Source: Escherichia coli
Lineage (GTDB): Bacteria > Pseudomonadota > Gammaproteobacteria > Enterobacterales > Enterobacteriaceae
Assembly (NCBI RefSeq): GCF_045037415.1
Contig: NZ_CP173438.1
Direction: 5' to 3' (one strand)
Length of the DNA stretch: 64,000 bases
The notes below the pieces were generated by a model. That model saw only the letters and a list, made by a program, of their open reading frames with translations. It ran no database searches and had not been told where the DNA came from. Of the stretch, positions 7,934 to 48,919 are shown one piece after another. Numbering within the stretch: the stretch's first letter is position 1; each line of letters opens with the position of its first letter. The position numbers and the translations under genes are program-made.

Positions 7934-8242
7934 TCTTCTGACTAAAGGGCACCCCAGCGTACAGGTCTCCCTGACTTTAAGCATTACAGGTTAATACCTG
8001 TATCCCTCGGTGCTCATATACTGCTAACCCTTTTAAACTCTAAATAATTCGAGTCGCAGCACATGCAACTTGAAGTATGACGAGTATAGCCAGTTACCGG
8101 GCTGGTCTGGGTTATTGCATCTGCAAAAAGCAAACTACTGATTTATTTATCAGCGGTGGGGTTTTGCTTTTTTCCGGCGTGATCAATTTCTCCTTTGAGA
8201 AATTGAGGACCTGCTATTACCTGAAATAAAGAGATGAACAAA

Positions 8243-21003: not shown

Positions 21004-21765
21004 TTAGTCGGCTATGATTAAACGCGTCGACAAGGACGCAAGCGTTCTACGCGTCTGCCCATCAAGCTGACTATCCGTAATAATCTCTGTCAGTTCATTA
21101 AGATGCGCGATATTAAACAGCGACCATGAACCGTATTTTGAGCTGTCAGCCAGGAGAATTTTGCGCGAAGCATGCGCGATAAGATCGCGTTTTAGTGCGG
21201 CTTTCTCTTCCGTGGGTGCTGTAATACCCTTTTCAAGATCCCAGCTGTTACAGCTTAAAAATGCCACGTCCGGCCAGGTATTTTGCAGCAATTTACGACC
21301 ATGTTCGCCAATGCAGGACTGGCTGGAGTCGTCAATACGTCCGCCGATAATCGTCACTTCAATTTGCTTGAATTCAGCCAAAAAAAGCGCGATATGCAGG
21401 TCGCTTGTGATCACGCGAAGCGGTAAATGTGTAATCTGCCGCGCAAGTTCAATCATTGTCGTACCGGCATCAAGGACGACGGAATCCCCCGCTTTGACCA
21501 TTGACGCCGCTGCGCTGGCGATGGCATGTTTTTCCGCCAGGCTGCGCTGCATTTTCTCATGGGTAGTCGGTTGGGTAGGAATAAACCGGTTGAGAGTCAC
21601 ACCGCCGTGTGTACGGCTGATAACACCCTGCTCATCGAGTTTTATCAGGTCTCGACGAATCGTAGCCGGCGACGCATTGGTTACCGCCACCAGCTCATCT
21701 ACGGTGACCAGATTATGGCTTTTCAGGTAATCCATGATCTGCTCTAACCGGTTATATCCCTTCAT
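21004..21765 (-). CDS. DeoR-family transcriptional regulator
   Basis: 253 aa; N-terminal HTH ([20 protein letters not shown]), DeoR-type C-terminal sensor domain; start 1 nt after upstream stop. Confidence 0.85.
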
Positions 21766-28702: not shown

Positions 28703-29983
28703 ATGACAATGGAAATGATCCTGGCATTAGGAATACTGGTCCTGATGATCGTGCTGATCATGTCGGACAAAATGCCTTTTGGCGCACCGCCACTGCTTGC
28801 GTGTTTATTGCTGGTTGTATCGGGACTTTCGACCGTTCAACAGGCTTTTGCCGGATTCGTCAATCCAAGCGTGGTGATGATTGCAGGGTTTATGGTGGTC
28901 ATGGCGGCGCTACAAAAAACCCGGCTTATCAGCAACGTTAAATCTGCGATGATAAGCCTGGTCAATAAAGGCAGTTACCGCAGCTATGGGCTGTTATTAG
29001 TCATTGTTATGCTGGGTGCCAGTCTTGCCGGCACCGGAGCGACCGGTTATTACGTGCTAATTCTGTCGCTGGTATCCACCATTCCGTACAGTAAAAAGCT
29101 ACCAACATCGAAATTAATGATGCCCCTGGGATTTGCCACCAACCACCCGCTTCTTCCTATCAATCTCGCGCTTCTCTTTGGCGTTACGGCGACCGTACTC
29201 GAAACCGCGGGGTTTCATCAGGCGATTTCGATGGGGCGCTTTGCGCTGGTGAATCTCATCATGTCAGCGGCTTTCCTCGCATGGAGTCTTATTGCCTACC
29301 GTTTTCTTCCGGATCATCCCATTGCGGATGCTTCCGAGGATGCGCTGGCGGCACGCGAGGAAACGTTTAACGCCCTTCCTGCCTGGAAAGAATATTGCAC
29401 TATTGCCGCATTCGCTGTCAGCGTTATCGGCATGATGCTAATGAACATTCTGGGAAATATCGCCTTCGTTATTCCGGGTCTTGCGGGTGCGTTTGTTCTG
29501 ATGATCGATGTACTGGACTTCAAAGAAGTTCGCGATCATATGGGGGCTCCGGTCATTTTAATGATGGCGGGGGTGATCGGTGTAGCTGATGCACTGGCGG
29601 GCACCGGCTTTACGGCGATGGTTGGCGATGCCGTTGCAGGTGTGCTCGGTTCTGGCGTCTCACCGTTTGTATTTATTGTCGCCTTTGCTTTGCTTACCAG
29701 TACCTGCGCCACCTTCACGGGTTCGAATATGGGGTCAGTATATATTTTTGCCCCCATCGCCATTGCCGCCTGTACTAGCCTTGGGCTTAACCCGACCGCT
29801 GCCGCGATTGCGGTGGTGATTTCTGGCTGGAATGGCGGCTATATGCCTATTGACGGAATGCCAGCCATGATCCTCGGAATGGGGAAATACAAACTTCCCG
29901 AATTCTGGGTGTTCTCTGTACCAATGTATCTCATCCGCATTCTGGCGCTTTGTGCAGGCGCTGTTTTTATCTTCCCAATGTAA
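28703..29983 (+). CDS. Polytopic permease, ion-transporter-superfamily-like (family unresolved)
   Basis: ORF 28457..29983 trimmed to ATG 28703 (aaggagag RBS); about 12 hydrophobic segments, 426 aa. Confidence 0.75.
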   Translation: MTMEMILALGILVLMIVLIMSDKMPFGAPPLLACLLLVVSGLSTVQQAFAGFVNPSVVMIAGFMVVMAALQKTRLISNVKSAMISLVNKGSYRSYGLLLVIVMLGASLAGTGATGYYVLILSLVSTIPYSKKLPTSKLMMPLGFATNHPLLPINLALLFGVTATVLETAGFHQAISMGRFALVNLIMSAAFLAWSLIAYRFLPDHPIADASEDALAAREETFNALPAWKEYCTIAAFAVSVIGMMLMNILGNIAFVIPGLAGAFVLMIDVLDFKEVRDHMGAPVILMMAGVIGVADALAGTGFTAMVGDAVAGVLGSGVSPFVFIVAFALLTSTCATFTGSNMGSVYIFAPIAIAACTSLGLNPTAAAIAVVISGWNGGYMPIDGMPAMILGMGKYKLPEFWVFSVPMYLIRILALCAGAVFIFPM

Positions 29984-39120: not shown

Positions 39121-39197
39121 GGCTACGTAGCTCAGTTGGTTAGAGCACATCACTCATAATGATGGGGTCACAGGTTCGAATCCCGTCGTAGCCACCA
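39121..39197 (+). tRNA. metT: tRNA-Met (elongator, anticodon CAU)
   Basis: 77-nt cloverleaf ggctacgtagctcag...gtagccacca; anticodon loop ctCATaa; identical to the copy at 39515. Confidence 0.9.
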
Positions 39198-39207
39198 TCT
39201 TTTTTTT

Positions 39208-39292
39208 GCGGGAGTGGCGAAATTGGTAGACGCACCAGATTTAGGTTCTGGCGCCGCAAGGTGTGCGAGTTCAAGTCTCGCCTCCCGCACCA
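39208..39292 (+). tRNA. leuW: tRNA-Leu (anticodon UAG)
   Basis: 85 nt with long variable arm; gcgggag acceptor pairs with ctcccgc; ends CCA. Confidence 0.85.
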
Positions 39293-39315
39293 TTCACCAG
39301 AAAGCGTTGTACGGA

Positions 39316-39390
39316 TGGGGTATCGCCAAGCGGTAAGGCACCGGTTTTTGATACCGGCATTCCCTGGTTCGAATCCAGGTACCCCAGCCA
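39316..39390 (+). tRNA. glnU: tRNA-Gln (anticodon UUG)
   Basis: 75 nt tggggtatcgccaagcggtaagg...; anticodon loop contains ttTTGat; ends gCCA. Confidence 0.9.
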
Positions 39391-39424
39391 TATTCTTCGA
39401 GTAAGCGGTTCACCGCCCGGTTAT

Positions 39425-39499
39425 TGGGGTATCGCCAAGCGGTAAGGCACCGGTTTTTGATACCGGCATTCCCTGGTTCGAATCCAGGTACCCCAGCCA
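39425..39499 (+). tRNA. glnW: tRNA-Gln (anticodon UUG)
   Basis: Identical repeat of the tRNA at 39316. Confidence 0.9.
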
Positions 39500-39514
39500 T
39501 CGAAGAAACAATCT

Positions 39515-39591
39515 GGCTACGTAGCTCAGTTGGTTAGAGCACATCACTCATAATGATGGGGTCACAGGTTCGAATCCCGTCGTAGCCACCA
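39515..39591 (+). tRNA. metU: tRNA-Met (elongator, anticodon CAU)
   Basis: Identical to the tRNA at 39121. Confidence 0.9.
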
Positions 39592-39639
39592 AATTCTGAA
39601 TGTGTCGAATATGTTCGGCAAATTCAAAAACCAATTTGT

Positions 39640-39714
39640 TGGGGTATCGCCAAGCGGTAAGGCACCGGATTCTGATTCCGGCATTCCGAGGTTCGAATCC
39701 TCGTACCCCAGCCA
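39640..39714 (+). tRNA. glnV: tRNA-Gln (anticodon CUG)
   Basis: 75 nt; anticodon loop attCTGatt. Confidence 0.9.
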
Positions 39715-39751
39715 ATTTATTCAAGACGCTTACCTTGTAAGTGCACCCAGT

Positions 39752-39826
39752 TGGGGTATCGCCAAGCGGTAAGGCACCGGATTCTGATTCCGGCATTCCG
39801 AGGTTCGAATCCTCGTACCCCAGCCA
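39752..39826 (+). tRNA. glnX: tRNA-Gln (anticodon CUG)
   Basis: Identical to the tRNA at 39640. Confidence 0.9.
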
Positions 39827-44472: not shown

Positions 44473-45352
44473 ATGAGCGACGACAATTCACACAGTAGTG
44501 ACACGATAAGCAACAAGAAGGGATTTTTCTCCCTGTTACTCAGCCAACTTTTCCACGGTGAACCGAAAAACCGTGACGAACTGCTGGCGCTGATCCGTGA
44601 TTCCGGGCAGAACGACCTTATCGACGAAGATACGCGCGATATGCTCGAAGGGGTGATGGACATCGCAGACCAACGCGTTCGCGACATCATGATCCCCCGC
44701 TCCCAGATGATTACCCTGAAACGCAACCAGACGCTGGACGAATGCCTTGATGTCATCATCGAGTCCGCCCACTCACGTTTCCCGGTGATTAGCGAAGACA
44801 AAGATCACATTGAAGGGATTCTGATGGCGAAAGACTTGCTGCCGTTTATGCGCAGCGATGCTGAAGCCTTCAGCATGGACAAAGTGTTACGTCAGGCGGT
44901 TGTCGTTCCTGAAAGTAAGCGCGTAGACCGGATGCTGAAAGAGTTTCGCTCTCAGCGTTACCACATGGCGATCGTCATTGACGAATTCGGTGGGGTTTCC
45001 GGTTCTCGTGACCATTGAAGACATCCTGGAACTGATTGTTGGTGAGATTGAAGACGAGTATGACGAAGAAGATGATATCGACTTCCGTCAGCTGAGTCGT
45101 CATACCTGGACCGTGCGCGCACTGGCTTCTATTGAAGACTTCAACGAAGCGTTCGGCACCCACTTTAGCGATGAAGAGGTTGACACTATCGGTGGTCTGG
45201 TGATGCAGGCATTTGGGCATCTTCCGGCGCGTGGCGAAACCATCGACATCGACGGTTACCAGTTCAAAGTGGCGATGGCCGACAGTCGGCGTATTATTCA
45301 GGTTCATGTCAAAATCCCGGATGACTCACCCCAGCCGAAGCTGGATGAATAA
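44473..45352 (+). pseudogene. corC: Magnesium/cobalt efflux protein CorC (YbeX), disrupted by +1 frameshift
   Basis: CorC is encoded by ORF 44473..45018 (frame 1) continuing in ORF 44978..45352 (frame 2); the join is at ggt-t-ctc around 45004, consistent with one extra T. Confidence 0.8.
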
Positions 45353-45376: not shown

Positions 45377-46915
45377 ATGGCTTTTGCCTCATTAATTGAA
45401 CGCCAGCGCATTCGCCTGCTGCTGGCGTTATTATTCGGTGCCTGCGGAACGCTGGCCTTCTCTCCTTACGACGTCTGGCCTGCGGCGATTATTTCGCTGA
45501 TGGGACTTCAGGCGCTGACCTTTAACCGCCGTCCACTCCAGTCTACCGCTATTGGCTTTTGCTGGGGATTTGGCCTCTTTGGCAGCGGTATTAACTGGGT
45601 CTATGTCAGCATCGCGACCTTTGGCGGAATGCCTGGCCCGGTTAACATCTTCCTGGTGGTACTGCTGGCGGCGTATTTGTCGCTGTATACCGGACTGTTT
45701 GCTGGCGTGCTGTCGCGTCTGTGGCCGAAAACCACCTGGCTGCGCGTGGCGATTGCCGCCCCTGCTCTCTGGCAAGTGACCGAGTTTCTGCGCGGTTGGG
45801 TACTTACAGGCTTCCCGTGGTTACAGTTCGGCTATAGCCAGATTGATGGCCCGTTAAAAGGGCTGGCACCGATAATGGGCGTGGAAGCCATTAACTTCCT
45901 GCTGATGATGGTTAGTGGCCTGCTGGCACTGGCGTTGGTCAAACGCAACTGGCGTCCGCTGGTGGTGGCCGTCGTGCTGTTTGCCCTTCCCTTCCCGCTG
46001 CGTTACGTCCAGTGGTTTACCCCGCAACCGGAGAAAACCATTCAGGTTTCGATGGTTCAGGGCAATATTCCGCAATCGCTGAAATGGGACGAAGGCCAGC
46101 TTCTTAATACGCTGAAGATTTACTACAACGCAACGGCACCGCTGATGGGCAAATCATCGCTGATTATCTGGCCGGAGTCGGCGATAACCGATCTGGAAAT
46201 TAATCAGCAACCGTTCCTCAAAGCTCTGGACGGTGAGTTGCGCGATAAAGGTAGCTCGCTGATCACCGGGATTGTCGACGCGCGTCTCAATAAACAGAAC
46301 CGCTACGATACCTACAACACCATCATCACACTGGGTAAAGGCGCACCGTACAGCTATGAATCAGCCGATCGCTATAACAAAAACCATCTGGTGCCGTTTG
46401 GCGAGTTTGTCCCACTGGAGTCGATTCTGCGTCCATTAGCACCGTTCTTTGATTTGCCGATGTCGTCATTCAGCCGCGGACCATATATTCAGCCACCGCT
46501 GTCGTTGAATGGCATTCAACTTACTGCGGCCATTTGCTACGAAATCATTCTCGGCGAGCAAGTGCGCGATAACTTCCGCCCGGATACCGACTATCTGCTG
46601 ACTATCTCCAACGATGCGTGGTTTGGTAAGTCTATTGGTCCATGGCAGCACTTCCAGATGGCGCGAATGCGTGCGCTGGAGCTGGCGCGCCCACTGTTGC
46701 GCAGCACCAACAACGGCATTACGGCGGTGATTGGCCCGCAGGGTGAGATTCAGGCGATGATCCCGCAGTTCACCCGCGAGGTGTTAACCACTAACGTAAC
46801 GCCGACCACCGGACTCACCCCGTACTCACGTACCGGCAACTGGCCACTGTGGGTGCTGACGGCACTGTTTGGCTTTGCCGCTGTACTGATGAGTCTGCGT
46901 GCTCGCAAACGTTAA
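45377..46915 (+). CDS. lnt: Apolipoprotein N-acyltransferase
   Basis: 512 aa; N-terminal polytopic domain plus C-terminal nitrilase-like domain. Confidence 0.95.
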
Positions 46916-47041: not shown

Positions 47042-48919
47042 TTACGGTTCAGGGATACAAGCCACATCGCCATATTGGGGATGCCGAATAATTGCCTGCG
47101 GATCAAGTGAACTTTCTCTGTCCAGTTGTATTAGCCCGTTCTTCGCCATAACAAATATCTTTCTACCATCCGCTGAAAAACGAAGATGATTCACGTAGCT
47201 GGCAGGATAAACGCCAATAATCTGCCCGGCATTAATATTGAGCAGGATGACATAACCTTGCAGGCCATATGACACCAACGCTAAATATTGACCGTCCGGG
47301 CTAATACCCTCAACGGAATAAACGCTCCTGCTACACCATTGCGTCATAATGCTGGCTTGTTGATCCTCAGCTCTTATACGTGAAATCCCCTGGCTATCGG
47401 CAAAAATAATCTCACCATTTTTTGGTCGGAATCCCATCGCAGAAACGACACCACGCGCATCACCTGCGGGAAAGTCTTCTTTCTGATGCGTGATGGTATT
47501 GATCCGCACGATGTTACCTCTGCCTGCTCCCGGAACCAGTAATGTTTTTTCATCCGGGGAAAGTGCCATAACCCAGGCGCCTGGTTTACCGCTCATCCCC
47601 GTCCCGTCGTATTTCTCCAGCGGGATATCCGCCACATGCTGATAAGCCACCAGATCAATCGCTGACACACTATTACTGGTGCGATTCATCACCCAGGCTT
47701 TTGTGCCATCACGCGAGAGGATAAGGCTGTCAGGATGTGCGCCGGTGGTAATCGACTGAATAATCTCCCCCGTTGCCACGTTAATGACCGATAATGCATT
47801 CGCTTCAAATGAAGTCGCATACAGCAACGTTTCATCCGGGCTTAGCGCCAGCGACCTGACGCCCTGATCTTTACAGCCACCACAATGTTTGACTGACTTT
47901 TCTTTCGCTATGGGGGCTGTAAAGGTATGCAGGATTTTCTTTTGTCCGAGGTCGAAAACAACAATGCTGTTCGTGTTTTCAATTGCGGCATACAACGTAT
48001 TAGCATCCCGACTGATCGCCATATCATGGATATCGGCAATCTCAGCGAGTAAATCACCACTGGCCTGCTCACGACTTACCGGAGCGGATAATGTTTCCCT
48101 GAGGGCGTTGCGCTCCTCCACTAACTGCTGCTTTTTTTGTCGTCGCTCTTGTTCAATCTCCTGCGGATAAAACGCTTCACGCAGGCTTTGCCTGACCTGT
48201 AAAACTGATTCATCAATCTGCTGCTGCACAAGCCAGATAGTCCCGGTCAGAAGAAGAGTGACCGCAACAATAATCCCGCCTTCCGTAACGAGCCGATTTT
48301 GCCCAACTAAACGCGCACTCAGCCAACCCAACGCGCCCCCCGCAATCAGGCCGCCAATGTGGCAAGCGTTATCTATTCCTGTTTGCCGGGTACCATACAA
48401 CAGTGTCAGCGCCACCATACCCAACAGAGGAAATACTCGCCGCTGGTTTTTATGGTGTGTGCCCGCACCTGAAGCAAGCTGTGTTGCTATCGCAGCGCCC
48501 GCTATTCCCATAATTGCCCCGGATGCCCCAACGCTGATGACTATCTGCTCACTTTCGCGTAACGCATAACAGGCGCTGATCAGCCCACCAAAGATGCCGG
48601 AGAATAACCAGATAATCAGGAGTCGCCATTTCCCCAGTATCCGTTCCGCCACTGTCCCCACCACCAGGAGTGCAAACATATTCATCAGCAAATGGGAAAA
48701 ACTACTGTGCAGAAAAACACTGCTCAATAAGCGCCAGGATTCATCCGACAACGTGAGAGAAGCAACGTTAGCGCCGAGATGGATGAGTGCGGATTGATCG
48801 ACTTCTTCGTAACTCATCCATTGTGCGAGGTAACAAAATATCCCAACACAGAGCGCAAAAAGGATCAGGGTTATTGCGGGTAATTGAACATTTAACGGCT
48901 TAACCGAAGATGCAGACAT
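47042..48919 (-). CDS. Rhomboid-family intramembrane serine protease fused to a C-terminal YVTN-type beta-propeller
   Basis: 625 aa; rhomboid signatures WR...F.H..F.H, catalytic GASG and HIGGLIAG; about 7 TM segments; coiled-coil-like linker; six or more roughly 40-residue propeller repeats. Confidence 0.85.
   Translation of the reverse strand: MSASSVKPLNVQLPAITLILFALCVGIFCYLAQWMSYEEVDQSALIHLGANVASLTLSDESWRLLSSVFLHSSFSHLLMNMFALLVVGTVAERILGKWRLLIIWLFSGIFGGLISACYALRESEQIVISVGASGAIMGIAGAAIATQLASGAGTHHKNQRRVFPLLGMVALTLLYGTRQTGIDNACHIGGLIAGGALGWLSARLVGQNRLVTEGGIIVAVTLLLTGTIWLVQQQIDESVLQVRQSLREAFYPQEIEQERRQKKQQLVEERNALRETLSAPVSREQASGDLLAEIADIHDMAISRDANTLYAAIENTNSIVVFDLGQKKILHTFTAPIAKEKSVKHCGGCKDQGVRSLALSPDETLLYATSFEANALSVINVATGEIIQSITTGAHPDSLILSRDGTKAWVMNRTSNSVSAIDLVAYQHVADIPLEKYDGTGMSGKPGAWVMALSPDEKTLLVPGAGRGNIVRINTITHQKEDFPAGDARGVVSAMGFRPKNGEIIFADSQGISRIRAEDQQASIMTQWCSRSVYSVEGISPDGQYLALVSYGLQGYVILLNINAGQIIGVYPASYVNHLRFSADGRKIFVMAKNGLIQLDRESSLDPQAIIRHPQYGDVACIPEP

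Follow-up and report, generated by a model that had tools for sequence, protein, structure and literature searches.

A corC frameshift in an Escherichia coli ST131 assembly that is very probably a nanopore artefact at a methylated Eco31I site

The apparent frameshift in corC (ybeX) of an Escherichia coli ST131 chromosome is almost certainly not a mutation: judging from sequence comparisons, the extra T that breaks the gene would be a systematic Oxford Nanopore basecalling and consensus error at the 5-methylcytosine of an Eco31I site. The gene lies in the window, that is, the whole stretch of 64,000 nucleotides that was analysed. In the proposed read-level mechanism, which we infer from comparisons between assemblies, two Eco31I methyltransferases of the ST131 isolate E1 (CNR20191027) and its derivatives would modify every GGTCTC (GGT-m5C-TC / GAG-m6A-CC); the modified bases would distort the pore current, the T-m5C-T stretch may then be miscalled as TTC, TTCT or TTT, and this recurrent miscall could win a long-read-only consensus at some sites in some assemblies. 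In the assembly of the window it would have won at the corC site, giving a false frameshift and a false pseudogene call. corC is very probably intact in the strain, and the gene is an ordinary corC/ybeX that shows no difference once the spurious base is removed.

First of all, the earlier note had described CorC as split over two ORFs in different frames near 45004, broken by a single inserted base, and both points hold. According to the ORF translations, the ORF at 44473..45018 (+) encodes CorC residues 1–177, followed by SRDH and a stop, and the +1 frame carries the rest of CorC as far as its normal stop at 45350–45352; the other E. coli genomes align here with a 1-base gap. Around the break the window reads ...gaattcggtggggtttccggTTctcgtgaccatTGAagac... 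(...GAATTCGGTGGGGTTTCCGGTTCTCGTGACCATTGAAGAC... for 44984–45023), and the extra T at 45003/45004 turns GGTCTCG into GGTTCTCG, the frame switch bringing up the TGA at 45016..45018 that the same note had pointed out. When one T at 45003 was removed in silico, an 879-nt gene of 292 codons was obtained, as had been predicted for a single T, and this repaired corC is 100% identical, in DNA and in protein, to the corC of the parent strain (WP_001278605.1). Pfam places NMB0537_N at residues 29–63 of the repaired protein, CBS domains at 69–124 and 140–189, and CorC_HlyC at 206–281; the break at codon 177/178 falls within the second CBS domain and upstream of CorC_HlyC. The CBS pair, the CorC_HlyC domain and the identity to annotated CorC make the product a member of the CorC/YbeX (CNNM) family, whose CBS-pair protein of the ybeZ-ybeY-corC-lnt cluster has the same domains. 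The gene order found at the locus (miaB, ybeZ, ybeY, corC, lnt) is also the same as in that cluster, and the operon context given earlier is correct.

The two-frame arrangement could in principle be functional, through a programmed +1 frameshift or through re-initiation at the in-frame GTG at 45008–45010, in the immediate neighbourhood of the new stop. This GTG precedes the TGA by 8 nt, and upstream of it, at 44990–44996, there is a G-rich stretch, so that a speculative case for recoding may be drawn from the sequence. However, only one genome out of 5,424 has the arrangement and the parent lacks it, that is to say, it shows no conservation; the frame is continuous in the other genomes, no slippery motif is present at 45003–45018 and no slippery or stimulatory element is otherwise evident, and re-initiation would yield two half-proteins split inside a CBS domain. 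Functional recoding is hardly conceivable here. The coordinates of the features are collected in Table 1.

Table 1. Features at the corC break and Eco31I sites in the window; the term "spurious" and its like follow the preferred, very probable reading.
Feature	Position	Strand	Basis or remark
corC (ybeX) coding region, apparently in two frames	44473..45352	+	ORFs and translations; 880 nt vs 879 nt in the wild type
TT vs a single T in all other genomes apart from the near-identical Esc28 record; one T very probably spurious	45003..45004	+	Alignments with SK1144 and parent E1
Corrupted Eco31I site, GGTTCTC for GGTCTC	45001..45007	+	Sequence; motif from PMC4659465
In-frame TGA, very probably artefactual, from the spurious base	45016..45018	+	Sequence, ORF translation
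Second corrupted Eco31I site, GGTCTCT to GGTTCT, 1-bp deletion	55655..55660	+	Apparently a false frameshift of djlC (55457..56907, -)
Intact Eco31I site GGTCTC	7964..7969	+	Motif scan; one of six uncorrupted in the window
Other intact Eco31I sites (four)	start 11718, 21648, 22794, 25976	+	Motif scan
Other intact Eco31I site (GAGACC)	start 30852	-	Motif scan

A 1-kb corC query matched 5,424 of the 5,426 complete E. coli genomes, and among these 5,424 only NZ_OZ369436.1 (Esc28) matched without a gap; a 61-mer spanning the corC site was likewise found exactly in Esc28 only. Reverse-complemented, Esc28 positions 1,994,134–2,058,133 give the window except for one SNP (window 28996) and one 1-bp indel (about 55657) in 64 kb. 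The SNP, which lies in an SLC13 family permease gene (28703..29983, +), is a G-to-A change relative to the parent, Esc28 and SK1144; it is synonymous, falls in no recognised methylation motif, and is probably a random consensus error. The lineage of the window is E. coli ST131, to which its closest relatives outside the clone, such as SK1144, also belong; corC is intact in them. Besides the copy number of tRNA-Gln, the alignment of the window with SK1144 shows only two indels, each of 1 bp, and both (corC +T and djlC -C) lie inside GGTCTC. The tRNA difference concerns a cluster of seven tRNA genes at 39121–39826 (Met-Leu-Gln-Gln-Met-Gln-Gln), of which SK1144 has one tRNA-Gln(CUG) copy fewer; this difference in copy number is a real polymorphism, and the 64 kb show no other structural difference.

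It has been reported that Esc28 is one of 29 CRISPR "escaper" clones (Esc1–29), which were derived from the clinical recipient E1 in a single conjugation assay (Nucleic Acids Res 2026, PMC12774652). The Esc genomes were built from Oxford Nanopore reads by six long-read assemblers, including Flye, and merged with Autocycler, whose consensus drew on 30 long-read assemblies; the methods describe no short-read polishing, and strain E1 is reported with a hybrid assembly (PMC12774652). According to the same paper, MiSeq reads were also produced for all samples (project PRJEB101410). Since the consensus is long-read-only and short-read polishing is not described, a recurrent miscall can win it. Esc28 is accordingly a native-DNA nanopore assembly of the unpolished kind, and near-identity to Esc28 suggests the same origin for the window. 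The parent E1 corresponds to CNR20191027 (NZ_OZ369157.1; urine, Belgium), with an intact corC, and the set compared here consists of this parent and 28 E1-derived escapers including Esc28, that is, 27 siblings besides it. The one E1-derived escaper that this set lacks is Esc20; the window, which is identical to no record of the collection and equals Esc28 plus the SNP and the indel given above, may come from Esc20 or from a different assembly version of Esc28. The chromosome lengths of most E1 clones lie between 5,156,475 and 5,156,542 bp, a spread that already indicates indel noise.

An alternative that has to be weighed against this history is that corC was inactivated in the Esc28 clone by a genuine 1-bp insertion that arose de novo. 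Such an insertion would leave a product of 181 residues with an incomplete second CBS domain and without CorC_HlyC, and might be polar on the downstream essential gene lnt. In its favour, the window and NZ_OZ369436.1 differ slightly and yet share the T, corC is already annotated by PGAP as a pseudogene in the latter, and corC/ybeX is dispensable in E. coli, so that its loss would be tolerated. If the window and the non-identical Esc28 record came from independently sequenced clones, the common T could be a shared real mutation, yet a recurrent k-mer error explains it equally well. The lesion is not reproduced in the clonal relatives: the comparison with close relatives that the earlier note had proposed was carried out, and neither the parent nor any of the 27 clonal siblings has the extra T. 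Moreover, Esc28 and its parent are one laboratory experiment apart, and the mutation rate of E. coli is about 1e-3 per genome per generation, so that even one real indel in Esc28 is improbable. Furthermore, the identical +T occurs in Esc28 once more, at another CCGGTCTC, the siblings give readings of the corC hexamer that are incompatible with each other, and the lesion lies exactly at the methylated base in an unpolished nanopore assembly. A genuine insertion is therefore highly improbable.

The position of the extra T within the motif points to the methylation-related error. It sits immediately 5′ of the cytosine that is methylated by M2.Eco31I in GGTCTC, and a motif scan of the ancestral 64 kb found only eight copies of GGTCTC/GAGACC. 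The ST131 strain EC958 has the Eco31I system on GI-leuX; its M1 produces GAG-m6A-CC, with 100% of the GAGACC sites methylated by SMRT sequencing, and its M2 is an m5C enzyme with the predicted product GGT-m5C-TC (Forde et al. 2015, mBio, PMC4659465). In EC958 we located the Eco31I locus on GI-leuX; a search beside the type I restriction genes, towards the end of the record, did not find it there. Both methyltransferases are encoded intact in Esc28 and are identical to those of EC958 (WP_001295726.1 and WP_001295727.1), and about 0.8 Mb separate the system from the window. This protein identity suggests that the enzymes are active, in which case the motif would be modified by the strain's own methyltransferase and the discrepancy would fall at the modified base. 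In addition, nanopore methylation calling finds m5C at GGTCTC in E. coli ATCC 25922, whose Eco31I locus has 100% identity to the same locus. The Eco31I locus is present in 634 of 5,426 complete E. coli genomes (about 12%).

In Esc28 the 3′ end of the endonuclease gene of the system is missing, having been lost to an ISEcp1-blaCTX-M-15 unit. The segment concerned, outside the window at 1,185,619–1,198,173 of the Esc28 record, contains ISEcp1-blaCTX-M-15, a Tn3 fragment, IS26, aac(6′)-Ib-cr, blaOXA-1 and a truncated catB; the unit is inserted in the 3′ end of the endonuclease gene, both methyltransferase genes being intact, and the junction between the ISEcp1 unit and the Eco31I endonuclease gene is common to 39 complete genomes.

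Further evidence comes from discordant calls within the clone. Relative to the parent E1, Esc28 differs over the 64 kb by the corC +T only, and the window by the corC +T, the djlC -C at GGTCTC and the synonymous SNP described above. Over 50 kb, Esc6 differs from the parent by a +T at GGTCTC in dtnK, another +T at GGTCTC in a DHDPS-family gene, the reading GGTTCC at the corC site (missense) and a T6-to-T5 homopolymer deletion, and Esc7 by a +T at GGTCTC in a DeoR regulator and the reading GGTTTC at the corC site. That is to say, the corC hexamer of one clone has four readings: GGTCTC, GGTTCTC, GGTTCC (Esc6) and GGTTTC (Esc7). The discrepancies of Esc6 and Esc7 fall at the window equivalents of 21649, 22795, 25977, 42757 and 45004, and their apparently false CorC missense variants carry separate RefSeq accessions, WP_338756890.1 and WP_135141898.1. 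The sites at 21648, 22794 and 25976 are intact in the window and corrupted by +T in the sibling assemblies Esc7 and Esc6. The djlC -C, for its part, truncates DjlC to a 424-aa ORF and is peculiar to the window, no record of the collection having it, Esc28 and the parent included.

The changes are concentrated in a very small part of the sequence. Nine distinct discrepancies from the parent were counted in the region, and seven of them lie in the eight motif copies, which make up 48 of 64,000 bp. Of the two outside, one is the T6-to-T5 homopolymer error of Esc6, a kind that nanopore data also typically show; at an interim count, with five of seven discrepancies in the motif, the binomial P was about 5e-15. 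At least one of the four assemblies is affected at five of the eight regional copies, and each error is private to one record, except that the corC +T also occurs in the near-identical window. Since the clones are separated by a single laboratory experiment, almost no real mutations are expected between them, and identical insertions that are repeated at a methylated motif, each private to one assembly, are not explained by biology. The same pattern is seen beyond the window: on GI-leuX of Esc28, a change of CCGGTCTC to CCGGTTCTC that is private within the clone frameshifts a GTPase gene (position 46186 of locus L010; 1,176,186 of the Esc28 record). This gene is intact in EC958 and in nearly all other genomes, and the same change was found only in the unrelated strain 439 (NZ_CP183084.1), which suggests that the artefact recurs in assemblies of Eco31I-positive strains from other laboratories.

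These calls also bear on the alternative that the earlier note had put forward, namely that either a mutation had really inactivated the gene or the sequencing had erred at a homopolymer. The sequencing error stands, the mutation being very unlikely as argued above, and the homopolymer kind does not. An ordinary error in homopolymer length would agree with the indel base being the same as its neighbour (T to TT), and one true case, the T6-to-T5 deletion in Esc6 at the equivalent of about window 42757, does occur in the region. However, the corC change does not lie within a run of several identical bases: the run goes from just one to two bases, and it is in long runs that such errors accumulate. 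As one T is merely doubled, and as the siblings show substitutions at the hexamer (C to T; CT to TC), the corC error is not of the homopolymer type, and most of the discrepancies counted above are at GGTCTC and not in runs. An ordinary homopolymer error at corC is thus scarcely credible.

It is equally scarcely to be believed that some or all of the GGTCTC changes, corC included, are real, as would follow if the Eco31I-methylated cytosines formed an in-vivo mutational hotspot in a strain whose endonuclease is truncated by ISEcp1-blaCTX-M-15, the sister clones then truly differing from each other. Two related biological readings were tried and rejected. Deamination of 5-methylcytosine might be considered for the C-to-T change of Esc7, but it fails as a general explanation: insertions make up most of the changes, and with several sites hit per 64 kb in each clone, the rate required would be too high by many orders of magnitude. 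Scars from the repair of restriction cleavage were also considered; Eco31I cuts 1 and 5 nt downstream of its site, and all the changes are at the methylated C inside the site, so that this reading was discarded. What remains as the preferred explanation is the nanopore error at the modified base.

A further candidate, lineage-wide gene decay of the Shigella kind, was rejected too: the other proteins of the 64 kb all have RefSeq accessions already, and apart from the ybeQ remnants, which SK1144 shares, there are no further pseudogenes. At 58278–58743 these remnants comprise what is left of ybeQ, interrupted by an internal stop, and a gene fragment beside it, both annotated also in SK1144 and in the parent. 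Since they are lineage-wide, they are genuine pseudogenes, unlike corC.

Systematic nanopore errors that are mediated by base modification and can survive consensus have been described before (Chiou et al. 2023, Commun Biol, PMC10687267). As in that study, the errors here strike repeatedly at a motif that the strain modifies with its own methyltransferases, and they survive the read consensus; genomes with short-read support and related genomes lack them, and close relatives can serve to correct them. The published errors were mostly mismatches at novel modifications in Listeria, whereas here the site is the classical one of Eco31I, the species is E. coli (ST131), and a 1-bp insertion (GGTCTC to GGTTCTC) with false frameshifts dominates, C to T and CT to TC occurring in addition. 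Eco31I (EcoMI) is a type IIS restriction-modification system (Forde et al. 2015; Bitinaite et al. 1992), to which the present case corresponds in the M1 and M2 of Esc28 and in the coincidence of the recognition sequence GGTCTC and its methylated cytosine with the position of the error; a difference is that the endonuclease gene of E1 and the Esc clones is 3′-truncated by the ISEcp1-blaCTX-M-15 resistance unit. The Eco31I system would be the cause of the artefact and is separate from the corC finding itself. A general literature search on nanopore methylation together with frameshifts or pseudogenes returned nothing specific. In summary, the class of artefact is already known, and its GGTCTC-to-GGTTCTC form in Eco31I-carrying E. 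coli is a practical detail and no new biological feature.

With corC almost certainly intact, the break has no biological weight, and its value is that of a quality-control warning. About 29 nanopore-only RefSeq genomes of one ST131 clone would be concerned, in which false frameshifts and false missense variants appear at Eco31I sites; in the roughly 110 kb compared with references, corC, djlC, dtnK, the DHDPS-family gene, the DeoR regulator and the GTPase gene are affected. Because the Eco31I locus is not rare in the species, as counted above, unpolished nanopore assemblies of the E. coli that carry it may be exposed to the same artefact. GGTCTC/GAGACC sites should be masked or corrected before pseudogenes are counted, cgMLST or SNP distances calculated, or adaptive gene loss claimed from such assemblies.

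Apart from the above, one gene close to corC was noted. Between lnt and gltI, at window 47042–48919 (-), lies the gene of a 625-aa rhomboid-family intramembrane protease with a long C-terminal extension; it is presumably absent from K-12 at this position and is conserved in the ST131 relatives examined.
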